Below, piece after piece: positions 2,285-14,597 of a stretch of DNA of 64,000 nucleotides. Position 1 is the first letter of the stretch, and every line of letters begins with the position of its first letter. The stretch is taken from assembly GCA_963847705.1 (NCBI GenBank), contig CAWKBC010000032.1, forward strand, positions 384,001-448,000, written 5' to 3'. Under the pieces are notes generated by a model that saw nothing but the letters and a program-made list of their open reading frames with translations, did not search any database and had not been told where the DNA came from. The translations under genes were made by a program, and so were the position numbers. Source of the stretch: an uncultured Pseudomonadota bacterium (GTDB lineage Bacteria; Myxococcota_A; Polyangia; Fen-1088).

Positions 2285-4111
2285 TTAGCCGGTGCCGCCG
2301 GCGGCACCAGCGGTCTGCCGGCGCAGCTCGTCGCCGAACATCTGCTGGATCATGCGCGCGGTGGCGCCCTTGCCCCCGCTGGCGTGGGCGGCCAGCGCGT
2401 CGGCGAACTCGGCGGCCGACTGGAACCGCTCGGCCGGCTCGAAGGCCAGCGCCTTTTCCAGCACCGAGGCCGCGGGATCGGGCAGCTTGCGAATGCGCGT
2501 CAGATCGTCAGACGTGATCCCGTTGGCGGCGCGGTAGAGCACGTCGAGATCGTTCTCGCCGGTGTAGAGCAGCTCGCCGGCGAGACAGTAGTAAAGCACG
2601 TGCCCCAGCGAGAAGAGATCGCTGCGGTGGTCGACCATCTGTCCGCGCGCCTGCTCGGGGGACATGAAATTCGCGTTGCCCTTCACCATCCCGACCTGCG
2701 TCTTGCTGACCCGGCGGTTCGACTTCACGATCCCGAAGTCGGAGAGCTTCACCTCGCCCAGCAGCGACACCATGACGTTGCTGGCCGAGATGTCCCGGTG
2801 GACGATCCCCATCGGGGAGCCGACCTTGTCGCGTTGCTCGTGCGCGTAGGACAGCGCCTGAAGCGTCTCGTGCGCGATGTAGTAGGCCATCGCCTCCGGG
2901 AGGCCCGCGTCATGCTGCTCGATGTAACGGCCCACGAAGCGGGCCAGGTCGCGGCCGACGATGTACTCCTGGGTCATGAAGTACTCGCCCGCCACCACGC
3001 CGAAGTCGAACACCGGAACGATGTTCGAATGGACCAGCCCCGCCTGCATCCGCGCCTCGTCGATGAACTGCGAGACGGCCTCTTTCTCGCGGGCCAGCTC
3101 GGGGCGCAGGCGCTTGAGGACGAAGTTCCGCGTGAACCCCTCGGCGCCCGCGACCTCGGCGACGAACAGCTCCGACATCCCCCCCTCGCCCAGGCGATCG
3201 ACCAGCCTGTAACGCCCGAAGATCGCGCCCACGCCGACCGGTCCGGTCTGCCGGGCGACCGCCAGATTCGCCGCCGCTCCCTGCGGGCTGCGGATGCTGA
3301 CCGCCTTGCCGTCGGTGATGCGGCCCGGGCGGAGCTCGGGCGCGGTGACCAGCTCGGAAGCTGCCGGGAGCGCGCGCGGCCTGGCCGGCGTCCCGAACTT
3401 CGACGTCGGCTCATGCGGAATCTCCCCGACAACCACAGCGCCGGGGGCGCCCACGACGTCCGGGCTCCGTCGCCCCGAGACGACCAGCGCCGCGCCCCCC
3501 AGCGCGACGCCGAGCGCGAGCAGCCACCACCCGGGGTGCTCGGCGAAGCGCGCTCCGCCGGCGCCCGGGACGACCGCCGGCGCGACGGCAGCGGCGAGGG
3601 TCACCGGGCGGCCGAGCAACACCACCGCATCGAGCTCGGGGCTGCCGGGGAGGTGCGCCGCCGCCATCACGTAGCTCTGACCGCCGACGTCGACGATCGC
3701 CGAGGCGATCTGGCGCTTGCGGGCCTCCGCCACGACCTCCTCGTCGCTGCGCCCCACGTCGGGGCCGCGGCTGACGGTGGTCTTGTCGCCGACGCGCACG
3801 CGCACCACCGGAAACTCGCTCCGGTAGGGGCGCCACCAGTCCTCGTTCTCGAACAGATCGACCAGCGTCGGTCCATCGACGCGCGCCCGCAGCGCCGCCT
3901 CCAGCGGCTCGAGGCGGGCCGCCTCCCAGACGTCCTTCTCGGCGGACTTCTTCTCCGTCGCGCCGCGAGTGTCGGCCTCGCCGGTGGCGCTCCGGAGCAG
4001 CGCCGCCTGCACGCGCGCCTGATCGCCGAGAACAGAACGCACGCCGAGCACGCCCACGGCCGTCCCGGCGACGATGAGCGCGATCCCCAACAGCAGGCGT
4101 GTCTTCCGCAT
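2285..4111 (-). CDS. Membrane-anchored Hanks-type Ser/Thr protein kinase with extracytoplasmic N-terminal domain
   Basis: Two hydrophobic segments flank ~170 aa; kinase motifs LGEGGM, VLKR, HRDISASN, DFG, MSPE, DLFSLG. Confidence 0.93.
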   Translation of the reverse strand: MRKTRLLLGIALIVAGTAVGVLGVRSVLGDQARVQAALLRSATGEADTRGATEKKSAEKDVWEAARLEPLEAALRARVDGPTLVDLFENEDWWRPYRSEFPVVRVRVGDKTTVSRGPDVGRSDEEVVAEARKRQIASAIVDVGGQSYVMAAAHLPGSPELDAVVLLGRPVTLAAAVAPAVVPGAGGARFAEHPGWWLLALGVALGGAALVVSGRRSPDVVGAPGAVVVGEIPHEPTSKFGTPARPRALPAASELVTAPELRPGRITDGKAVSIRSPQGAAANLAVARQTGPVGVGAIFGRYRLVDRLGEGGMSELFVAEVAGAEGFTRNFVLKRLRPELAREKEAVSQFIDEARMQAGLVHSNIVPVFDFGVVAGEYFMTQEYIVGRDLARFVGRYIEQHDAGLPEAMAYYIAHETLQALSYAHEQRDKVGSPMGIVHRDISASNVMVSLLGEVKLSDFGIVKSNRRVSKTQVGMVKGNANFMSPEQARGQMVDHRSDLFSLGHVLYYCLAGELLYTGENDLDVLYRAANGITSDDLTRIRKLPDPAASVLEKALAFEPAERFQSAAEFADALAAHASGGKGATARMIQQMFGDELRRQTAGAAGGTG

Positions 4112-4138
4112 GGTTCTCCTCGACGTCAGCGACCCCGA

Positions 4139-5122
4139 CTAGTCACGGTACGAGCCATAGGCCTGGCCGAACTTGTTGGCGTGGGCCGAGGGGTCCTCGT
4201 GCTCCAGCGTGAACGAGACCTCGGTGGTGGGGCCGTTGACGGCGACCCTCTGCGACTCCACCTTCGTCTCGGGGCTCCAGGCCACCAGGCGCCGGACACC
4301 CGGGGGGACGTTCTCGATCCGGAACGTCCCGTCGGGGCGCACCTTGGCGTAGAGCACGCTCGGCACGACCAGGACCTTGGCCGACATCTTTTGATGAATG
4401 TTGCAGAAGATGTCGACCACGCCCGGACCGGTCACGGTGACCGAGCGCGCCTTGTCGCCGGCCTGGTAGGTGCCGAGATCGAAGCTGTTGCGCGGGGAGT
4501 TCGAAAAGACGTTGTGATAGACGGCGTCCATGTTGGGGAACATCAGGTTGGTCCCGGTCTGGACCACCGCCACGCGCGGGCTGAACTGCCGGCCCTCCTG
4601 CTTGATCTCCACCACCTTGTGGTGGGTGAGCGGCATCTTGACGTTTTCGACGTAGACGTACACGTCCTCCAGCGACCCGCCGGTCACGGTGACCCTGCCT
4701 TCGATCGATCCCGGCCGCCGATCGGCCGCCGCGGTGGCGGCCGGCGACTTCTTCGCCTGCTTCTCGGACGCCGCTTCGGCAGCGGGCTCGCTGGGCGCCG
4801 AAGCGGGCGCGGCCGCCACACCGGGCAGCGGCGTGCCGCCCCCCTGCCCTTGCAGCAACCGCAAGAGCATGTCGTAGCGCTGCTGCTCGGTCTGCATCAT
4901 CTGGATGATGAGCTGCCGCTGCTCGCGCACGTCGTTCTGCAGCTTGGCGAGCTCGGCGCGCGTCGGCGGTCCCTCCGGAGCCTTGGCGTCTTGCCCGTTC
5001 TGGGCCCAGGCCGGCGCCGCCAGCCGGGCGATCAGCAGCCCGCTCAGGATGCCGGTCCAGATTGGTCTCGACGTCTTCTCCATGGTGCGCCTCGCGATGG
5101 CTTCGTTTGTTTGGTCAGTCAA
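4139..5122 (-). CDS. Exported protein: coiled coil plus cupredoxin-like/carboxypeptidase-regulatory-like domains
   Basis: Signal peptide (APAWA), coiled coil, HNVFS and FCNIHQKM (His, Cys, His, Met); start may be the second Met (MEKTS). Confidence 0.8.
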   Translation of the reverse strand: MTDQTNEAIARRTMEKTSRPIWTGILSGLLIARLAAPAWAQNGQDAKAPEGPPTRAELAKLQNDVREQRQLIIQMMQTEQQRYDMLLRLLQGQGGGTPLPGVAAAPASAPSEPAAEAASEKQAKKSPAATAAADRRPGSIEGRVTVTGGSLEDVYVYVENVKMPLTHHKVVEIKQEGRQFSPRVAVVQTGTNLMFPNMDAVYHNVFSNSPRNSFDLGTYQAGDKARSVTVTGPGVVDIFCNIHQKMSAKVLVVPSVLYAKVRPDGTFRIENVPPGVRRLVAWSPETKVESQRVAVNGPTTEVSFTLEHEDPSAHANKFGQAYGSYRD

Positions 5123-6566
5123 TCAACACCAGCGACGATGTGAAGACGTCGTCCTTGATCTGCGGGACGCCCCCGTATTCACCGTTGTGGAGGTACTCGA
5201 GCTTGAGAATGATCCGATCGGTGAAGTTCACGTGGACGCCGCCCGTGGCCCGCCACCCCTTGGTCAGGTAAGCGCGGTCGGCGCCGCCGGGCGCGTTGGG
5301 GTCGCCCAGCCAGATGAAGGCGTCGCGATATTCGATTCGCCCGATGACGCCCAGGTGCGCCTGCAGATAGGCCGCCAGCTCGACATAGCCGCCACCGTGG
5401 AGCTGCAGGCCGTACACCTGGTTGACCGCGTCGCCCGGCGACGCCCCGCGCAGGTACTCGGCGCGAAGATCGGCGCGGCGCAGATGGAGCTGGTAGTCGA
5501 CGCCCCAGAACCACATCTTGCCGACGTCGTTGGGCGAGCGGTCCTGCGGCCCGTACGATCCCGAGGTCCCCAGCTCCATGTCGAGCGGGAATGGCGGGTG
5601 GAGCGAGAGCCGTCCGCTGACCGTCTTCCCCAGGTTGACGTCGGTCTCGTTGTAAAAGAAGAACTGCTCGGTGGTGAACGATCCGTTGGTGACCGCTCCC
5701 GCCAGCACCAGGAGATCGTCCGGACCGAACTTAGAGCGGACCTTGACGCCGATCGCGGTCCCGGTGGTGTAGCGCGCGATCAGCGAGGGGGTGATGCCAT
5801 ACCGCTGGTCCGACTTCCGCTCGCGGTACTCGATGCCCAGCACAGAGTCGAACTTGCCGACGAAGATCGACGTCCTCTGGGAGCGGGTGGGCATCCATTC
5901 CAGCTGCGCGAGGTCGACGTCAAAGACGTCTCCCAGGTTGAAGTTCGACCCGGTGCGCGGCGTGAAGTTGAGGCTGGCGGTGGCGATCGCGCTCTGCCCC
6001 AGACCGGAGGTCAGCTTCATGTTGATCTCGTTGACGATGAAACTGGGCGCTCCGCCGGAGTGGATGGCGTCGTTGCGCGGCACCGCGCCGGTGGCATCGC
6101 CCAGGTCGGCCGGCTCCCCGCGCGTGTTGATGGGGGTGGCCAGGATGTCGCCCAGGAACACCCAGCCGTACTTCCCCGCGTATTGCGGAAAGTAAACGTT
6201 CCCTTGATCGCGGACGATGCCGGACCCGTTCCCTTGCGTCGCGAAGAACCCGAGATCGATGTAGCCACCCAGAATGACCCGCGGCTGGCGGTTGGCGACC
6301 AGCGACTGCATCTGGTCGAGACGCGCTTCCAGCTCGGAGATCTTGGCGATGGGATCTTCGTGACCCTCGTCGTGCGTGTCGTCGGGCAGCACCAGGCTGG
6401 GCGCTTCATCCGCGGTGGCGGGCGCGGGCTCGGGCGCGGCCGTCGCCGGCTCGACCGACTCGACCGGCGCCGGCGCCTGGTCGTCGGGCGCCGCCTTCGC
6501 GCGACCAACGACCAGCAGAAGAACGCCCGCAACCAAAGGCGTGATCCGTCGCGATCGGGGCATCAT
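5115..6566 (-). CDS. Putative outer-membrane beta-barrel (porin-like) protein
   Basis: Signal peptide, short coiled coil, then amphipathic beta-strands rich in aromatic residues; overlaps the next gene by 8 bp. Confidence 0.65.
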   Translation of the reverse strand: MMPRSRRITPLVAGVLLLVVGRAKAAPDDQAPAPVESVEPATAAPEPAPATADEAPSLVLPDDTHDEGHEDPIAKISELEARLDQMQSLVANRQPRVILGGYIDLGFFATQGNGSGIVRDQGNVYFPQYAGKYGWVFLGDILATPINTRGEPADLGDATGAVPRNDAIHSGGAPSFIVNEINMKLTSGLGQSAIATASLNFTPRTGSNFNLGDVFDVDLAQLEWMPTRSQRTSIFVGKFDSVLGIEYRERKSDQRYGITPSLIARYTTGTAIGVKVRSKFGPDDLLVLAGAVTNGSFTTEQFFFYNETDVNLGKTVSGRLSLHPPFPLDMELGTSGSYGPQDRSPNDVGKMWFWGVDYQLHLRRADLRAEYLRGASPGDAVNQVYGLQLHGGGYVELAAYLQAHLGVIGRIEYRDAFIWLGDPNAPGGADRAYLTKGWRATGGVHVNFTDRIILKLEYLHNGEYGGVPQIKDDVFTSSLVLID

Positions 6567-6796
6567 TGAGAACCCATGACATCGGCTCGATCCACGAAGA
6601 CTGAAGGTTCCGTAACTGGCATTAACGCCTTGATTGGCAAAGACAAAACAGCGATCTCAGGACCCGTAATGCGGCGAACGCTTCGTAGCGTCGCCGCTGC
6701 GAACGTTTCATTCAGCGGGCAGCTCAATCGCAACAAACGACGACGCCGACCGCCAGCGCCATTGATCGCGGGCGGGCGTCGGCGTGCCCCCGAACT

Positions 6797-9235
6797 TCAG
6801 ATGCAGCCGAGGAAGGCCAGCAGCGCTTGCTGCGAGGCCGGATCGAGCGCGGCGTAGGCGGCGGCGGCGGCGGCAGCTTGACCGCCGTGCGCCGCGATGG
6901 CGTCGGCGATGCTGGTCGCGCGGCCGTCGTGCAGGAAGTGGACGCGCTCGGAGGCGCGCCACAGCGGTGCCGTTCGCCATTCGCTGCCGCTGGCGGAGCC
7001 GGCCACGAACCCATCGGCCAGCGCCGGCCCCATGTCGTGGACCAACAGATCCGAGTAGAGGTTGATCGTCCGTCCCGGGCCCGGCAATGAGGGCGTATGG
7101 CAGCCGGCGCAGCCGGTTGCCGCGAAGGTGGTCGCCCCCGCCGCGGAGGTGCAGCTGGCGTCGGGCACCGCGGGATCCAGCGAGGCAATGAAGGTGTCGA
7201 CGGTCTGCAGCGGCAGCGCGTCGATCTCCGGCTTCAAGAAGTTGGCGCCGCAGCCCGTGACCTCGTCGTCGGGGACCAATGGATTGGTCATCCCCATCTC
7301 GTGCGTGAAGGCGTCGCCCATGAACTCGATCAGGGTCGCGAACTGAGCCTTCCAGCCGAACTTGCCCGGCCGCCCGTCGGGCAGGACGTTCAGCGTGCCG
7401 CGCACCTCGGCCGGCTCGGCCGCCTGCGCCGTCAGGATGTCAGGCGTCTGCACGAAGTCGATGAGCGCCGTCCCGCGCAGGGTCATGGCGCTCCGCTTCG
7501 AGGTCAGGTTGGCCAGCGGGGGGACGCCGGTCGGCAAGCCGCAGAAGAACCCCAGGCCAGCGATCGAGTGGGTACGTGCCACCGGGCCGCCGTGACCGCT
7601 CAGATCGTCGAACACGCCGCCGTCGATCCGGCCGACGCGGGTGACGAAGGTGTCGGCCGTCGCGCCCATGCCGCCCTCGAGCGGGGCGTTGTGGCAGTCA
7701 CCGCAGGAGCGCCCGTTGAACAAGGGTCCGAGGCCCTGCAAGGGAAAGAGCTCGGTGGCGAACATGTCGGCGCCCATCGCCGAGGGGGTGGTGGCGCCCC
7801 CCTGGAGCGCGTGAATCACCATCGTCGGCGTCACGAACCCCGCGCCGAACGCCGGCATCTGCAGCACGACGCCGTTCCCGCCCGCCATCACGGCCGTCAC
7901 CCAGATCGTCTGCGCGTTCTCCGAGACGGCGATGCCGTTCACGCGAAAGGACGGCAGGGCGGCCTGGATGCGGCGCGCGGCCAGCACCTGGCCGGCCTGG
8001 TTGATGCGCACGATGCTGTTGTCGCCGCGGTTGAGGACGTAAATGTCCGAACCGCCGCCCAGCGTGGTGTTGCTGGCGAAGTTGTCGCTCGAGACCTCTC
8101 GCACCGCCGGGGCCATGTCGATCGGTCGATTGAACCAGGGGGAGCGGATGAACCGGGGCGCGCCCGCGATGAACAGCGTGCCGTCATCGCTGATGTCGAG
8201 CGCCACGATCTGGTTGGCCAGCGGATCGCTCACGTAGGCGATGCGGGTCGGCACCCAGTTGAAGACCATCCCGATACGGGTGACGACGTCGGGCGAGGTC
8301 GATTGCGTGGCGGCCACCGTCAGATTGGTGAGCGGATGAAACGTCCCGGCCGGCGCCAGCCCATCGACCCCCTTGAGGACATGGACCTGGACGATGCTGC
8401 CGTCAGCCTCGGCGGCCAGAAACACCGCCTTGCCGGTCCCGTCGGGCGACTTGCTGAGGATGGCGGTGCCGACGGCCCCGTGGTCGAGTCCCTCGGTCGA
8501 GGCGCTGCTGCGGTTGGTCGCGTCGCCCGAAAAGACGCCGCCCGCGACCGGATTGGGGGGACCTGCCAGCGGAGCGCCGCTGGGATCGTCGACGCTGATC
8601 GTCCCCGCTCCGTTCGCGCCGGTCGGGGCGTTGGCGATCCAGGGGCGGCCGTTGCCGCTGTTGATCGAGAGCCCGAGCGGCAGGCTCGACGACGGCAACG
8701 CGGCGGTCGCGGCGGTCGGATTGTTGACGCTGTTGAGGAAGGCGGCGTCCTGGTTGGCGTAGATCTGCGCCAGACCATCGGCGCTGGCCGCCTGTCCCCC
8801 GGCGGTCGCCAGATCGGGGGCCACCGTGACCAGACCGTGGTTGACGTCGAGCGAAAGGACGCCGCCCGGCGCCTCGGCCGGTCGCGAGAGCGTGGCGCCG
8901 AAGCTCGACGAGCTGGCGACGAGCAGGCGCGCGGGATCGAGGACCATCCCCGGCGCGATCGCGGGATTCAGCGTGGCCTTGTCATGAATCGGGCTTCCGC
9001 GGTGGAAGGTGCCGACCTGCGTGATGGCGCCCGCCCCGGGGATTCCCTGCGCCACCACCTGCGCGCGGATGGGCGTCATGAAGAAAGGATCGCGCAGCGC
9101 CAGGTCGCCGCTGTTGCTCTCCGTTTCGACGTTCGCTGCCGAATCGGGACCGGTGCTGCAGCCTGCCAACGCGATCGCCAAGACCAGGGCCTCGAGCCCG
9201 GAACGGGTTCTGACCGACCTTCGCGTGACGCGCAT
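6797..9235 (-). CDS. Lipoprotein with N-terminal beta-propeller-like region and C-terminal di-heme oxidoreductase (DHOR-like) domain
   Basis: AAGGAGG RBS before ATG 9235; lipobox LAGC; GLGPLFNGRSCGDCH, GKFGWKA, GCAGCH, YSDLLVHDMG, WRTAPLW, LHDGRA. Confidence 0.85.
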   Translation of the reverse strand: MRVTRRSVRTRSGLEALVLAIALAGCSTGPDSAANVETESNSGDLALRDPFFMTPIRAQVVAQGIPGAGAITQVGTFHRGSPIHDKATLNPAIAPGMVLDPARLLVASSSSFGATLSRPAEAPGGVLSLDVNHGLVTVAPDLATAGGQAASADGLAQIYANQDAAFLNSVNNPTAATAALPSSSLPLGLSINSGNGRPWIANAPTGANGAGTISVDDPSGAPLAGPPNPVAGGVFSGDATNRSSASTEGLDHGAVGTAILSKSPDGTGKAVFLAAEADGSIVQVHVLKGVDGLAPAGTFHPLTNLTVAATQSTSPDVVTRIGMVFNWVPTRIAYVSDPLANQIVALDISDDGTLFIAGAPRFIRSPWFNRPIDMAPAVREVSSDNFASNTTLGGGSDIYVLNRGDNSIVRINQAGQVLAARRIQAALPSFRVNGIAVSENAQTIWVTAVMAGGNGVVLQMPAFGAGFVTPTMVIHALQGGATTPSAMGADMFATELFPLQGLGPLFNGRSCGDCHNAPLEGGMGATADTFVTRVGRIDGGVFDDLSGHGGPVARTHSIAGLGFFCGLPTGVPPLANLTSKRSAMTLRGTALIDFVQTPDILTAQAAEPAEVRGTLNVLPDGRPGKFGWKAQFATLIEFMGDAFTHEMGMTNPLVPDDEVTGCGANFLKPEIDALPLQTVDTFIASLDPAVPDASCTSAAGATTFAATGCAGCHTPSLPGPGRTINLYSDLLVHDMGPALADGFVAGSASGSEWRTAPLWRASERVHFLHDGRATSIADAIAAHGGQAAAAAAAYAALDPASQQALLAFLGCI

Positions 9236-9285: not shown

Positions 9286-10614
9286 TCATGGCCGCCGGTG
9301 CTCCCCGGTGGCCGAGGCGTGCCGGTGTGCGCCGCTGGCGGTCAGCGCCGAGGCGGTCGCCGGGACGAGAATCGGACCGCTGGCGGTCATCGCGCGATGT
9401 CGGCGCGACACCTCGGCGGAGATCACCATGAACGAGCGCGTCCGGCGCAGGAGCTGCCAGACGGCGAACGAACCACCCACGGACGCCACCGAGATCAAGG
9501 CCAGCTCGCCACGCGCCCCGCGGCTCGCCACGACCATCAACGCCAGGGTCAGACCGCTCATCGTCGCGCAAGCCGCCGCCCCCAGGACCACCGCCCGCAC
9601 GCCGGCGGAGAGCAGTCCCTTGAGCTCGAGATGAAGGCCGATGCCCGCCGAGACGGTCACCGTCGCGAAGGCGACCACCTGCCGATCGACCGCCAGCGTG
9701 GCGCGCCAGCCGACCGCCTGTCCGAACAGCCGATCGCCCGCGGCGCGCACCAGCGCCAGGATCAGGAACCCCACGACGAAGCCCGGAATGTGGCCCACCA
9801 CCGTGCGCCCGAGCCCGACGGAACGCTCCCCGCCCCTCGCCCGATCGGCGCGCCAGAGCGAAAACAGGATCAGCACCGGCGCCAGCATCAGGACCCGCGC
9901 CGACTTGCTGACGGCCGCCATCTCGGCGCCGCCAGTCCCCATCTGGGCGCCGACCGCGACGGCGCTGGCGAGATCATTCACCGCCAGTCCGCTCCAGATC
10001 CCCCCCTGGTGGGCGTCGAGACCGGCCGCCGCGGCGATGGCCCGGAACAGCACCAGGGCCACCGCGCTGTAGAGGAAGATCGTCGCCAGCGCGACCCCCT
10101 GCTCCTGCCGCCGCGCACCGATGACCGGCGCCACCGCGTTGATGGCCGAGGCTCCGCAGATCATCGTCCCCGACGCGATCAGGTTGGCCAGCCGCCGGGG
10201 GACGCGCAGGGGGATCGCCAGCGCGCGCGTGACGAAGAAGGTCGTCGGCAAGGCCGTCACCAGCCCCAGCGCGATCGCCATGAGCTGCCGCGACTCGAAG
10301 AGGCGCGCCTCGATCCGCAGCCCCATCAGCACCACCGACGCGCGCAGCACCACCTTGCCGACGAACGTCAGCCCCGCCCCGTAACGATTGCGGCCCCGAT
10401 CGTGCGCCGCCAACCCCAACCATTTCGAGAGGGGCGAATTGACGACGAGCGAGCCGACGATCAGCGCCACCAATACGTCGGGGAGCGCCCAGCGGGCCGG
10501 ACACAAGCGCTGCAACTCGAGCGCGGCTCCCCCCACGATGAGAGCCAACGCGGCGCCCGGTGCCACCGCACGGATGTGGGTGGACCACGCATGTTGCGCT
10601 GCGGGGCCGGTCAT
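9286..10614 (-). CDS. YeiH / putative sulfate exporter family membrane protein
   Basis: Polytopic; IASGTMICGASAINAV, GIWSGLAVND, KSARVLML motifs of the YeiH family. Confidence 0.85.
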   Translation of the reverse strand: MTGPAAQHAWSTHIRAVAPGAALALIVGGAALELQRLCPARWALPDVLVALIVGSLVVNSPLSKWLGLAAHDRGRNRYGAGLTFVGKVVLRASVVLMGLRIEARLFESRQLMAIALGLVTALPTTFFVTRALAIPLRVPRRLANLIASGTMICGASAINAVAPVIGARRQEQGVALATIFLYSAVALVLFRAIAAAAGLDAHQGGIWSGLAVNDLASAVAVGAQMGTGGAEMAAVSKSARVLMLAPVLILFSLWRADRARGGERSVGLGRTVVGHIPGFVVGFLILALVRAAGDRLFGQAVGWRATLAVDRQVVAFATVTVSAGIGLHLELKGLLSAGVRAVVLGAAACATMSGLTLALMVVASRGARGELALISVASVGGSFAVWQLLRRTRSFMVISAEVSRRHRAMTASGPILVPATASALTASGAHRHASATGEHRRP

Positions 10615-10964
10615 TTGCACGGCTCTCCGCTGCCATCGAACGCGATCGCGAGCGGAAACTCCAGCGACGAAACCGACAATCGCCCTCGGAGATCACGAAG
10701 CGTCAGGTCGACCACAGTTCCTCGCGCGGCAGTCTCTGACATGTCCGCGAGCGCGGTTTGTCGTCGGTTGCACACCGACAGCGACGCCATTCGCGAGCTG
10801 TCGTCCACGGCGACTTGCGAAGCGATGTGCGGAGCCGCGTGCGCGTGGATCGACATCGGATCGAAACTCATCGACTCCGAAAATTGGAACTTAACTGAAC
10901 CGCCAGCGACGGTATTCACCGGTACAACCCACGCGCAACGAGTCTCCGACATGCACATGCGCGT

Positions 10965-11043: not shown

Positions 11044-12678
11044 ATGCGACGGAGAGAGGCAACAACGCGATCGGACTTGGCGGGCGGCGCGGTCGCGCTG
11101 GCGATCGTCGCCGTCGCGGGGTGCGACGCCAGCAGCTTCTTCTGCGGCAGCAACGCGACCTGCGGCTGGTCCGACACCGATCTCGCGCGCGTGGCCGCGC
11201 TGGCCAATTTGCCGTCGACGCCGCCGGCCGACAACAGCAACGCCTACGCGACGAACCCCGACGCCATCGCGCTCGGAAAGATGTTCTATTTCGACACCCG
11301 TTTCTCTGGCCCTTCGACCTGGCTCGACGGCCTCAATCGCACGATGCCGTTCGGACGCACCGCGATCGGTCAGAGCGCGGGCGTGGCCTGCGTCAGCTGC
11401 CACGATCACGCCCATGGCAGCGTCGATCCAGCCAGCACGCCGGGCGACGTGTCGGTGGGCGCCGGCTGGACCTACGCCAACTCGCTCCCGACGTTCGATT
11501 CCGCGTTCTACTCCTTGCATCTTTGGAACGGCCGCGTCGATTCGTTATGGGCCCAGGTCGTCGCCGACAACGAGAACCCTCTGACCACCAATGGCAACCG
11601 CCTGCACACGGCCTGGTTGATCAACGATCACTACGTCCCGGCCCCGACGCCCCCGGCCAATTACCAGCCTTACCCGAACGTTTTCGCCGATCCGCTCCCA
11701 CCGTTCGGGGGATCGTCGTCCAGTGTCCAGGCGATGGTCGACGCCACCGGGCAGTGCCCGCCGCCGGTGAACGGAGTGTGCCCCACCGCCAGCTGTCGGG
11801 GCGCCACCACCACGGCGACGGGCACGGTCGACAGCTGCTGGCCGGTGGTTCCGCTGCAAGGGAAGCCCGGAAAGACGGCTGGCTGTCAGCCGGGCCTGGC
11901 CAGCGAGCCGTTCGGCGACGCCTGGGATTGCATGGACCCGGACGTTCAAACGGCGGTCACGCGCATGCTGGTCAACTTCGGCAAGGCGATCGCCGCCTAC
12001 GAGGGGACGCTGATCCTCGGTCCGTCTCCGTTCGACGAGTGGGTGGCCGATCTGCAGGCAGGTTACGGCGATTCATCGACCAAGATTTCGGGCCCGGCGA
12101 AGATCGGCGCGCAGCTCTTCGTCGGCAAGGCCGGTTGCAGCGACTGCCACAACACCCCGCTCTTCTCCGACAGCCTGTTTCACAACGTGGGCGTCGGCCA
12201 GATCGGGGCCGGGGTCCCGACGGTCGAGGACTGTCCGTCGGGCGGCGTCTGCGACTGCACGATCGACGCCGATCACCCGACCGGAACGAAGAATTGCCTC
12301 CCCTTCGGGGCCACCGACGGCCTGCAAAAGCTGACGGCCAACGGGTTCCTCCGCAGCTCGGTCTGGAGCGACGACCTGAGCTACGTCCCACCCGCAGCGC
12401 CGCCGGCGAGACCGATCGGCGGCTACCGGACCCCCAGCCTGCGCAACGTCTCGCTGACGGCCCCCTACATGCACGACGGCTCGATCGCCACTCTGGCCGA
12501 CGTCGTGTGGCATTACAACCAGGGGATCAGCGACGAGAACACGCCCGGCGACCCGGCCGCTTCGTTCAAGCCGCTCTATCTCTCCAACGACGAGCAGGCC
12601 GCGTTGGTGGCGTTCCTCGAGTCGCTGGGATCGGCGCTCCCGACCGCCGACGTGCTCGCGCCGCCGACGCTTCCTTAG
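11044..12678 (+). CDS. Di-heme cytochrome c peroxidase/MauG-family lipoprotein
   Basis: GAGGAG RBS; lipobox VAGC; LGKMFYFDTRFS, CVSCH, WNGRVDSLWAQ, CSDCH, TPSLRNVSLTAPYMHDGS. Confidence 0.9.
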   Translation: MRRREATTRSDLAGGAVALAIVAVAGCDASSFFCGSNATCGWSDTDLARVAALANLPSTPPADNSNAYATNPDAIALGKMFYFDTRFSGPSTWLDGLNRTMPFGRTAIGQSAGVACVSCHDHAHGSVDPASTPGDVSVGAGWTYANSLPTFDSAFYSLHLWNGRVDSLWAQVVADNENPLTTNGNRLHTAWLINDHYVPAPTPPANYQPYPNVFADPLPPFGGSSSSVQAMVDATGQCPPPVNGVCPTASCRGATTTATGTVDSCWPVVPLQGKPGKTAGCQPGLASEPFGDAWDCMDPDVQTAVTRMLVNFGKAIAAYEGTLILGPSPFDEWVADLQAGYGDSSTKISGPAKIGAQLFVGKAGCSDCHNTPLFSDSLFHNVGVGQIGAGVPTVEDCPSGGVCDCTIDADHPTGTKNCLPFGATDGLQKLTANGFLRSSVWSDDLSYVPPAAPPARPIGGYRTPSLRNVSLTAPYMHDGSIATLADVVWHYNQGISDENTPGDPAASFKPLYLSNDEQAALVAFLESLGSALPTADVLAPPTLP

Positions 12679-13587: not shown

Positions 13588-14597
13588 TAGACCGCTTTTG
13601 AATTGACCCGATCGATCAGGCGTGATCAAACGTCGGGATGGCGGAAACATCGATCGATCTTCGGAGGCGCCTGGTAGCGGCGTATCGCTCGAAGAAGAGC
13701 GGTTCCTACGCGGCGACGGCGGCACTGTTCGGAGTGGGCGAGGCGACGGTGAGTCGTCTTTTGCGACGACAGAGAGAGACAGGCGACGTTCAGCACAAGC
13801 CGAGAGGCGGAAACCGGAAGCGAGAGATCGACCTGGACTGGCTGCGGGAACACCTGGCAGCAAATCCGGATGGGCGACTGATTGACCGCATCGCGGCGTG
13901 GCAGGAGCACGCAGGGAAGCGGGTGAGTCTAGGAACGATGTGGCTGGCGGTCCGCGCCTGCGGGTGGACTCATAAAAAAAAGCAGTGGTCGCCCGCGAAC
14001 AAGAACGCTGGGACGTCCAAGCGAAGCGGGCGACCTTCGTCGCTCAGCAGCACCAGCTCGACCCCACGAAGCTGATCTTTCTCGACGAGTCCGGCTTCCG
14101 ATTGGGGACGCCCCCGAACTACGGCTGGGCGCCGATCGGTGAGAAAGCGCCGGGAAAAGCGACACACGGGGACTGGTGCACGATGACGATGATCGGAGCT
14201 CTTGCTCTCGATGGCTGGCGCGGCTTCGTGACGATTGACGCACCCACCGACGGCGACGTCTTTCTGGCCTACGTCCAGCAGCAGCTCGTCCCGAACCTGC
14301 GGCCCGGCGACATCGTCGTGATGGACAACCTGGGCGTCCACAAGGCCCCAGCGGCCCTCGCGGCGATACGCGCCGCTGGCGCGGAGGCCCTCTTCCTTCC
14401 GCCGTACTCCCCCGAGTACAACCCCATCGAGAAGGCGTGGGCCAAGCTCAAGGACCTCCTCCGACGCTTGCCCACGCTCTCCCGAGAGGCCTTCGACGAC
14501 GCCGTCGCCTTCGCCATGACCACCATCTCCAACGCCGACGTCAGAGCCTGGCTCACCTTCGCAGGCTATTCCCTCGGGTCAATTTGAAAGCGGTCTA
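13588..14597 (+). mobile_element. IS630-family insertion sequence, complete
   Basis: 24-bp terminal IRs TAGACCGCTTTTGAATTGACCCGA / TCGGGTCAATTTGAAAGCGGTCTA (2 mismatches); CTAG at both ends, consistent with TA duplication. Confidence 0.95.
13638..14587 (+). CDS. IS630 transposase (OrfA HTH 13638-14075 plus OrfB DDE 13985-14587, -1 frameshift)
   Basis: IFLDESG, VVMDN, LPPYSPEYNPIE; A8G slippery run at 13974-13982. Confidence 0.93.

Follow-up and report, generated by a model that had tools for sequence, protein, structure and literature searches.

Layout of the locus

Within the window (the whole stretch of DNA analysed, 64,000 nucleotides), three minus-strand open reading frames encode a predicted outer-membrane barrel, a secreted blue-copper-type protein and a receptor Ser/Thr kinase (Table 1), at the coordinates assigned in an earlier, sequence-only reading of this DNA. 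The 27-bp gap noted there between the copper and kinase genes (4139 to 4111) is correct, whereas the 8-bp overlap placed between the barrel and copper genes is a start-site artefact that arises only if TTG 5122 is taken as the start. Specifically, 11 of the 26 closest copper-protein homologues begin with MEKT, similar starts occur in most of the others, and homologues are mostly 305-320 aa long; therefore, we place the start at ATG 5083, which has a GAGG upstream and leaves a 31-bp gap to the barrel gene.

Table 1. Coordinates of the features at the locus, in window positions
Feature	Position	Strand	Description or basis
Receptor Hanks-type Ser/Thr kinase gene	2285..4111	-	608 aa, two-TM
Periplasmic single Cache (PDC) domain of the kinase	3602..4042	-	AF2 pLDDT 82
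Blue-copper-type protein gene	4139..5083	-	314 aa from ATG; earlier ORF 4139-5122, 327 aa from TTG
Secreted copper protein	4139..5083	-	Signal peptide, helix, low-complexity linker, cupredoxin in beta-sandwich, C-terminal tail
Four predicted type-1 copper ligands, His ... Cys-x2-His-x2-Met	4385..4516	-	Homologues and alignment to amicyanin 1id2
Predicted porin gene	5115..6566	-	483-aa ORF
Predicted 16-stranded outer-membrane porin	5115..6566	-	Signal peptide, N-terminal periplasmic helix, conserved 65-residue first loop
Terminator-like hairpin between DHOR and barrel genes	6740..6762	-	Consensus match only
Predicted lipoprotein, NHL-like propeller (lead only) and di-haem DHOR domain	6797..9235	-	Pfam DHOR, two CxxCH
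YeiH-type membrane protein (PF03601)	9286..10620	-	Pfam and synteny
Predicted di-haem CCP_MauG lipoprotein, divergently oriented	11044..12678	+	Start approximate

The three genes of the trio are genuine, evolve under purifying selection and stay linked within the genus. Measured against two relatives, dN/dS is about 0.1-0.3 for the barrel, copper and kinase genes and 0.3-0.5 for the sensor. Across 24 genus genomes, the barrel gene lies upstream of the copper gene in 23, and in 22 the copper gene is followed by the kinase or by its sensor; with further loci beyond the genus, the co-occurrence on which the earlier reading had staked its proposal holds. Genes past the kinase vary among relatives, and the block up to the kinase is kept. 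Because genus and metagenome loci are mutually related and partly redundant, locus counts here and below are not counts of independent events. Further, the conserved unit is larger than the trio and takes in two di-haem genes beside it.

The three envelope proteins

The proposed beta-barrel was borne out by modelling: the AF2 model (pLDDT 93) shows 16 long strands, preceded by a helix at the N-terminus (residues 3-24 of the modelled part), and its Foldseek matches (OmpM1, OprP, DcaP and OmpF, E 1e-13 to 1e-9) point to a 16-stranded porin of the OmpF/OprP/DcaP fold, with a signal peptide read from the sequence. Many Arg/Lys residues are conserved, as is one Trp (W135, kept in 89% of barrels); the conservation map held no conserved His, Met or Cys, and the window barrel has no Cys at all. 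The latter rules out the N-terminal CxxCH, fused to the barrel, that marks Cyc2-like cytochrome-porins. Membership of Pfam BBP2 (PF07642) was rejected at 21.3 bits against a gathering threshold of 26.2, as was a DUF3034 identity, given no PF11231 match and a separate BLAST cluster. The barrel ends SLVLID, lacking the C-terminal aromatic beta-signal residue, as do two close relatives; more remote relatives have F or Y as the last residue.

In the copper protein, an amicyanin-like cupredoxin sits inside a CarboxypepD_reg-type beta-sandwich, followed by a tail with the motif HxNKxGxxYGxY. The HNVFS and CNIHQKM motifs seen earlier are present, with ligands H203, C240, H243 and M246 in TTG numbering (H190, C227, H230 and M233 from the ATG), and the set is kept in 120/120 homologues, the conservation on which the earlier proposal depended. 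Both motifs line up with the loops that carry the copper ligands in amicyanin (1id2), and the order His ... Cys-xn-His-xn-Met within a cupredoxin sequence is that of type-1 proteins; hence, the protein likely has a type-1 (blue) copper site that would be loaded with copper. It shares with amicyanin, plastocyanin and pseudoazurin the His-Asn ... Cys-x2-His-x2-Met pattern, with the amicyanin loop length (profile matches E 1e-4 to 1e-2), but differs from all three in its insertion in a beta-sandwich, N-terminal helix and C-terminal tail, and from amicyanin in that its gene adjoins receptor genes instead of a dehydrogenase. A PDB search found no solved structure of this two-domain family. Its database label, "methylamine utilization protein", derives from the mau cluster name; no methylamine dehydrogenase genes were found among the annotated neighbours, and the name MauL is a database label only. 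Heptad-like helices do occur in both the barrel and the copper protein (in the latter kept in 116/120 homologues), but the suggestion that the two proteins assemble through paired coiled coils is unsupported; N-terminal helices of porins, as in DcaP, more likely serve homo-trimerisation.

The kinase has hydrophobic segments at residues 6-24 and 194-212, an Ala/Val-rich linker stretch at 163-181 and a Pfam Pkinase domain at 301-564. Its sensor lies between two TM helices, in agreement with the earlier description, and the protein is a Hanks-type receptor Ser/Thr kinase. The catalytic motifs had been called intact, which is true of the G-loop, Lys333, Glu352, HRD438, DFG458, SPE, Asp498 and Arg562 but not of the catalytic loop (HRDISASN), where Ser replaces the usual Lys. 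PknB/PASTA kinases have an N-terminal kinase and C-terminal PASTA repeats; we rejected this assignment on an NF033483 score of 211 bits against 450, the absence of PASTA and the reverse topology.

As modelled, the sensor combines a long helix with a PAS-like (PDC) fold between the two TMs, as in the Cache superfamily, whose domains usually bind small molecules. It carries an invariant motif, D..T..DL...E.WW (WW in 24/24 sensors), of which the WW is confined to the kinase family. With a single subdomain and no Pfam match, it is not a dCache_3 (PF14827) member; relative to its paralogues, it has lost the membrane-proximal subdomain, and on sequence comparison the domain appears to have been cut down from a dCache_3-like ancestor. 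The periplasmic domains of the receptors described below, including the kinase family's, are homologous (hhalign P 96%, E 3e-9), which indicates that the sensor type stayed the same as outputs were exchanged; the window's shortened sensor itself gives only a weak alignment to the other dCache sets (E 0.004), and the link runs through longer paralogues. Its best fold match (Foldseek, VIA) is the CHASE4 domain of IsmP (PA2072; 8wct, Z 12.1, rmsd 4.8 over 150 residues), but at 12% identity and tied within about 1 Z with CitA (Z 11.2) and Mlp24; a shared fold shows no shared ligand. LuxQ is also among the matches.

Haem neighbours and the spread of the copper-receptor pair

The DHOR lipoprotein gene (Atlas score 0.87) lies directly upstream of the barrel gene in 8/8 orthologous loci, and a gene of similar size occupies the YeiH-type position in 7/7 relatives with enough DNA. 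The divergently oriented CCP_MauG gene encodes a predicted lipoprotein of which no second family member turned up in this genome; the gene is 39-44% identical to the di-haem genes placed immediately before the barrel in paralogous cassettes. In MauG, Tyr294 acts as a haem ligand, and a MauG-type enzyme is marked by Tyr in place of Met at its six-coordinate haem; the window enzyme and 22 of 26 homologous rows examined have a Tyr aligned with it. The best PDB match of this Tyr region is 6e1c, which we take to be MbnH. The CCP_MauG enzyme of the window shares with MauG, MbnH and BthA two CxxCH motifs, the family and this Tyr. The window di-haem proteins differ in being longer, Cys-rich predicted lipoproteins, and no methylamine dehydrogenase or MbnP gene was recognised near them. 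Given the hairpin between the DHOR and barrel genes and the divergent CCP gene, the haem genes need not be co-transcribed with the trio here.

A di-haem gene adjoins the barrel in 20/20 genus loci, 6/6 loci from other families and 17/26 long metagenome loci. Further, genes with at least two CxxCH occur in 17/20 genus and 56/80 metagenome loci, compared with 10 of 200 10-kb tiles drawn at random from this genome. Two cassettes of the genome have no di-haem neighbour (C10:30126-34843 and C29:269670-273318, the second also without a kinase). Elsewhere, a 4-5-haem cytochrome stands between the copper gene and the receptor in most PP2C loci, and a secreted group I truncated haemoglobin is found in 55/80 and 18/36 proteobacterial loci; such a globin is also fused to a copper-protein paralogue in this genome. 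The additional cluster members are redox proteins of three unrelated kinds: globin, di-haem enzyme and 4-5-haem cytochrome.

The copper family occurs in 84/301 sampled Myxococcota and 34/301 sampled Pseudomonadota genomes, not every copy being signalling-linked, and in both phyla it precedes Cache-type receptors. The idea of a conserved input with a swappable output, put forward in the earlier reading with GGDEF/EAL and histidine kinase neighbours in other phyla, was upheld by the gene-neighbourhood tally and widened to six outputs: Hanks kinase, PP2C phosphatase, adenylate cyclase, histidine kinase, chemoreceptor (MCP) and GGDEF-EAL. In the copper-protein tree, a single clade (support 94) contains histidine kinase, MCP and EAL outputs, and kinase and PP2C versions occur behind the same porin family. 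A dCache_3-like gene lies at the copper gene in 79/80 betaproteobacterial loci and in 28/36 loci of the 301-genome Pseudomonadota draw (the other eight having no recognised membrane receptor nearby); in Myxococcota, a membrane receptor stands beside 28 of 60 copper genes and none was recognised near the remaining 32. Barrel families swap among lineages, with at least five unrelated clusters plus DUF3034, and a barrel is missing from many loci. Hence, the tightest link is between the copper protein and the Cache receptor, with a barrel family that changes between lineages. Several barrel-copper loci have no receptor (L270, L271, L273 and L109), and in this genome no copper gene adjoins those for a dCache_3-like protein (C27:765480) and for a kinase that has a window-type sensor (C27:629835). 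A separate copper-family clade lies among respiratory genes (Rieske/cytochrome b, azurin-like and cytochrome-porin), as expected of an electron carrier.

Among the closest known arrangements is a Pseudomonadota operon known from annotation only, DUF3034 - group I truncated haemoglobin - "methylamine utilization protein" - dCache_3/HAMP/GGDEF/EAL. It has a homologous copper protein (33-37% identity), the same receptor-domain type and an outer-membrane gene nearby, but the window has another barrel family, a kinase in place of the c-di-GMP output and di-haem neighbours in place of a free globin. Our literature search found no paper on this operon and none describing a barrel-copper-receptor module. 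YfiBNR, LuxPQ and PruR-DcpA are accessory-protein envelope signalling systems in which, as here, an outer-membrane or periplasmic partner is encoded with an inner-membrane Cache/PDC receptor. In the window, however, the partner is a predicted redox-active copper protein and the output a Hanks kinase, and no homology to the partner proteins of those systems was seen in Pfam or PDB searches.

Candidate signals for the kinase

A blue-copper-type protein, a predicted porin and a kinase beside two haem enzymes, with six outputs elsewhere, likely represent an unstudied route by which the oxidation state of the cell envelope is reported to the cytoplasm. On this view, a conserved envelope cluster would signal through the trio: electron exchange with the adjacent haem proteins likely alters the oxidation state of the blue-copper-type protein, which likely docks on the Cache domain of the kinase. 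Docking would then switch Ser/Thr phosphorylation according to the periplasmic level of an oxidant, such as peroxide, O2 or NO, and the porin may serve as an entry channel or as a surface platform for the di-haem lipoproteins. We put the probability of this reading, that the secreted copper protein reports oxidant level to the kinase through the haem proteins and Cache docking, at about 0.5.

Redox sensing is favoured over copper sensing as the input because the other neighbours are redox proteins (MauG-type di-haem proteins, pentahaem cytochromes and secreted globins) and not copper pumps. A sensor of copper availability, in which copper entering by the porin loads the periplasmic protein and the apo or holo form switches the kinase, is unlikely, if the strongest of the competing accounts. 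It would suit the complete, invariant ligand set and the match to the IsmP CHASE4 domain, which the available text of PMC13492106 reports as iron-binding. In Myxococcus xanthus, CorSR senses periplasmic copper through a membrane kinase beside a cupredoxin-domain gene, and the curA operon, like the window, is an envelope cluster that also includes a cytochrome c; in the available text of its description (PMC3707914), however, it has a multicopper oxidase, a P1B-ATPase, a His kinase and a sigma-54 regulator, all absent from the flanks of the window trio, and its Table 1 lists no porin. Pfam-annotated neighbours likewise include no P1B-ATPase, multicopper oxidase or Cus genes, and a screen of 276 loci gave 0 P1B-ATPase and 1 multicopper-oxidase motifs, in a search without positive control that gave none in 200 random tiles either. 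A copper sensor would further sit poorly with a barrel devoid of conserved His, Met or Cys and with outputs that are mostly second messengers rather than a local transcription factor, and it leaves the globin and multi-haem neighbours unexplained.

Improbable to a similar but slightly greater degree is a MauG/MbnH-like cofactor maturation unit, in which the di-haem enzyme oxidises a partner Trp (W135 in an outer loop of the barrel, or the sensor's invariant WW), the copper protein exchanges electrons with that enzyme and the kinase controls or reports the resulting state. The MauG-type Tyr, the 6e1c match, the retention of both candidate sites and the mau-derived annotation agree with it, as does the modification of partner proteins by MauG-type enzymes; the same source, in its available text, also shows through BthA that the MauG type implies no known substrate (PMC11892367). 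Moreover, a conserved Trp can be structural, the WW does not extend beyond the kinase family, and proteobacterial versions mostly lack a di-haem gene (multi-haem genes in 4/80 and 3/36 loci) and still keep the copper-receptor pair. That an anionic solute passes the Arg-lined porin to bind the Cache pocket, the copper protein acting as adaptor or as modifying enzyme without its redox state being the signal, has a smaller chance still: the conserved Arg/Lys resemble those of anion-selective porins, and the Cache folds of CitA, DctB and LuxQ bind or relay small molecules, but barrels are freely exchanged and often absent, whereas the copper protein is always retained, its ligands included. Least probable is an electron-transfer or peroxide-removal unit of di-haem enzyme, porin and cupredoxin merely co-transcribed with a kinase for an unrelated signal. 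Receptor-free loci, the orphan kinase with a window-type sensor and the possibility of inherited within-genus synteny would allow this, but in two phyla, and with six different outputs, one and the same type of receptor domain comes after the copper gene, and conservation runs up to the kinase and not beyond.

To our knowledge, blue copper proteins are electron shuttles, not co-receptors. More tentatively than for the window itself, the redox reading may extend to the type-1 copper protein as a general bacterial redox co-receptor, which would equilibrate with periplasmic haem partners reactive with peroxide, O2 or NO and, when in one of its oxidation states, dock on a dedicated dCache_3-type domain. 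Evolution would have coupled this domain to six output chemistries, among them an opposing kinase and phosphatase behind one porin family. If so, trans-envelope redox signalling would gain a new class, and a large set of orphan Cache receptors would have a ligand. A copper protein signalling its oxidation state in this way would provide a testable input for many c-di-GMP enzymes, cyclases, phosphatases and kinases that are so far unstudied, as well as a signal for some of the numerous orphan Ser/Thr kinases in myxobacteria. The proteobacterial operon is present in cultured strains, and a test is therefore within reach.

Linkage of the three genes and their haem neighbours

The barrel, copper-protein and receptor-kinase genes had been proposed to form one trans-envelope unit, and their co-occurrence across genomes agrees with this. 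Labels of homologues put the host within Polyangia (Myxococcota). Of 24 genomes of the genus, each represented by its best locus, 23 place the barrel upstream of the copper gene and 22 place the kinase or its sensor downstream of it; among the misses are one contig end and one different paralogue. Metagenome loci found via the barrel alone (80 of 534 examined, some of them duplicates) carry the copper gene next in 51/51 cases with at least 900 bp of downstream sequence and in 68/80 overall; they were drawn with a narrower barrel alignment, are biased to distant barrel subfamilies, and include none with a kinase-type sensor. Further, dN is far below dS in all three genes when compared with two relatives. 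The 27-bp gap between the copper and kinase genes was read correctly; the 8-bp overlap described between the barrel and copper genes would need a TTG start, and we prefer the ATG at 5083 because the starts and lengths of homologues point there. No sigma-70-like promoter was detected.

Trio genes of the window and further related loci in the source genome (G000; C10 and C29 are its contigs)
Feature	Coordinates	Strand	Basis or remark
Barrel ORF	5115-6566	minus	ORF reading of window
Copper-protein ORF	4139-5122 counted from TTG; likely start ATG 5083	minus	ORF reading, homologues
Kinase ORF	2285-4111	minus	ORF reading of window
Barrel-copper-kinase locus	G000 C10:30126-34843		further related locus
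Lipoprotein-barrel-copper cassette without kinase	G000 C29:269670-273318		further related locus
Truncated-haemoglobin-copper fusion, then receptor kinase	G000 C10:160902-164388		further related locus

In the wider genus regions compared (n = 20; 8 orthologous and 12 paralogous loci), the barrel's immediate upstream neighbour in 8/8 orthologous loci is a DHOR di-haem gene; further out stand a ~420-aa gene and a divergent CCP_MauG gene in all 7 that reach that far, and the genes past the kinase vary. At the paralogous loci, a CCP_MauG gene stands directly before the barrel (12/12), with a kinase in 9, a contig edge in 2 and no kinase in 1. CCP_MauG also occurs at 6/6 barrel loci from other families and in 17/26 long metagenome loci, under a strict test that excluded antisense frames. 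The window's CCP_MauG enzyme, the sole family member found in the source genome, carries a Tyr where MauG has residue 294, a feature that most homologues share. According to PMC11892367, the oxidant of MauG-type enzymes is H2O2, and certain members modify partner proteins. A terminator-like hairpin lies between the DHOR and barrel genes and, as predicted from sequence, argues against a single transcript for the two. The DHOR gene is fragmented in the closest relative, G001 (L251:7055-9421), by either real decay or assembly error.

Downstream of the kinase lie an SDR oxidoreductase gene (1383-2177), missing at that position in 8/8 relatives, and, by eye, the start of an RND-type efflux gene (1-1185). 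Two overlapping ORFs at 13638-14587 resemble an IS630-type transposase (HTH + DDE). The haemoglobin-copper fusion in the source genome is a predicted lipoprotein in which the copper protein is joined to a group I truncated haemoglobin; similar fusions occur at L076, L086, L101 and L102.

Copper protein, barrel and sensor

The copper protein comprises a signal peptide, a helix, a linker and a core at 4142-4711, in which a CarboxypepD_reg-type sandwich is interrupted by a cupredoxin; its predicted ligand loops align with amicyanin at identical Cys-x2-His-x2-Met spacing. The type-1 copper ligand set noticed earlier is conserved, with all four predicted ligands in 120/120 homologues among the matches listed; among distant locus proteins, 143/146 keep the Cys-His-Met loop pattern and 137/146 the full strict pattern. 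Atlas look-alike clusters, which serve as a lead only, come foremost from Myxococcota, Pseudomonadota, Acidobacteriota and Planctomycetota. A C-terminal tail is present in 117/120 close homologues and missing from proteobacterial and His-kinase-linked copies, and we therefore rejected it as a universal receptor ligand.

Against Pfam, the barrel protein gave a single, sub-threshold BBP2 match, and a search of 1.84 billion representatives returned 356 relatives with E-values no higher than 0.001. Folded with 49 of the best 150 relatives and 14 locus sequences, it is modelled as an N-terminal helix plus 16 long strands (pLDDT 93), in line with the beta-barrel first suggested, and the Foldseek matches of this model are the porins OmpM1, OprP, DcaP and OmpF. 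Conservation falls on Gly, on many Arg/Lys and on a cluster of Asp/Asn/Trp within the long first loop; the family alignment holds no conserved His, Met or Cys, on which ground a His/Met copper channel was rejected. Assignments to DUF3034 and to Cyc2-like proteins were likewise rejected. The family is rare (6/401 sampled Myxococcota genomes, source genome included). The window's copy ends in SLVLID (5115-5135) in place of the terminal aromatic (F/Y) kept by relatives, a trait common to two close relatives.

For the kinase, the sensor had been placed between two transmembrane helices, and these are predicted to bound ~170 residues modelled as one Cache/PDC domain (pLDDT 82), which spans 3602-4042. 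The catalytic motifs, described as intact, are present, but Ser replaces Lys in the catalytic loop. Sensors of kinase paralogues span ~250 residues, and the window's kinase clade has lost the membrane-proximal half. This sensor subtype occurs in 92 longer proteins, every one of which with a recorded Pfam domain has a protein kinase. A first profile comparison with dCache sets was weak (E 0.002-0.009); deeper profiles showed the long form to be homologous to dCache_3-like sensors of other outputs (P 96%, E 3e-9), to which the short form of the window is tied only via the long form. An orphan kinase with a trio-type sensor (C27:629835-631940, on another contig of the source genome) and the kinase-less cassette on C29 could be partners in trans.

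Range of outputs

The notion of a swappable output, with GGDEF-EAL and His kinase among the variants, is borne out by our neighbourhood tally, which gives Hanks kinase, PP2C, HAMP-cyclase, His kinase, MCP and GGDEF-EAL. Specifically, Caballeronia plasmids hold together DUF3034, a group 1 truncated haemoglobin, a copper homologue and a dCache_3-HAMP-GGDEF-EAL gene; plasmid homologues (33-39% identity) carry the label 'methylamine utilization protein'. Among 80 of 112 mostly betaproteobacterial loci examined, which came from a Caballeronia protein query and are biased accordingly, a dCache_3-like gene is found in 79, EAL in 76, globin in 55 and DUF3034 in 45. An even draw placed the copper protein in 34/301 Pseudomonadota genomes, and their 36 regions (37 of 38 matches) hold a dCache-type gene in 28, EAL in 23, a Hanks kinase in 2, a His kinase in 2 and a cyclase in 1. 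Matches occur in 84/301 Myxococcota genomes, where we compared 60 regions (56 from 130 matches listed, best first and with some matches on short contigs skipped, plus 4 from another search). These contain 13 HAMP-cyclases, 5 His kinases, 4 Hanks kinases (one truncated at a contig edge), 2 convergent GGDEF-EAL genes, 1 MCP, 1 PP2C and 2 stand-alone Cache membrane proteins, with none of the counted receptor or output types in 32/60. Behind the window's barrel family, the 20 metagenome receptors analysed were 19 PP2C phosphatases and 1 His kinase with Hpt.

In a quick-method tree of 113 copper domains, respiratory copies form a separate clade (support 99) and another clade (support 94) holds His kinase, MCP and EAL outputs together; the deep forks are unresolved, and we therefore make no claim about the order of events.

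Several individual loci extend this range. L278-L343 (metagenome) and L075/L275 repeat the order barrel, copper protein, 4-5-haem cytochrome c and dCache_3/HAMP/PP2C phosphatase, often with an adjoining Ser/Thr kinase gene. Stand-alone TM-dCache-TM proteins without a cytoplasmic domain lie directly upstream of the copper gene at L131:5465-6337 and L133:3207-4148. In Pseudomonadota, L217 and L218 combine the copper protein, a dCache-HAMP-Ser/Thr kinase and a Porin_5-like gene, and L218 also has DUF3034 and globin.

A proposed redox-reporting role and its rivals

The module is real and conserved: the copper protein and a Cache receptor are its constant pair, and its variable companions are haem proteins reactive with peroxide, O2 or NO. 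A weak screen saw no copper-export genes beside copper-protein loci. For these three reasons, we favor over all rivals, at a probability of roughly one half, the reading that the module reports redox state. The copper protein would be loaded with copper, would exchange electrons and would dock on the receptor, and the signal itself is likewise putative. That the module instead senses copper is unlikely; that it serves maturation of a Trp cofactor is less likely still, that it senses a solute ranks below this, and mere co-transcription of the genes is the least probable of the four.

The module's way of working is, we presume, like that of the accessory-protein systems YfiBNR, LuxPQ and PruR-DcpA; however, the trio has no partner family in common with them. 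We read it as kin to accessory-protein envelope signalling, and there is a fair chance that it forms a new class. Identity with curA/CorSR was rejected on comparison with the description in PMC3707914. The module is apparently undescribed in print, no description having been found by word searches of open-access papers without their supplements.

Other copper-protein relatives occupy different settings. At 14 loci (L095, L114, L116-L120, L123-L128, L130), members of a separate copper-protein clade are encoded after a predicted porin of 410-520 aa, which has a CxxCH near its N-terminus in the four sequences inspected and which we take to resemble Cyc2. Rieske/cytochrome b or azurin-like genes often come after the copper gene there, and these loci are a possible extracellular electron-uptake cluster of myxobacteria. 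On Sinorhizobium pSymA (L044), a more distant relative is flanked by an SCO gene and a metallophosphoesterase close to soxYZ, and a similar pair is found at L249.
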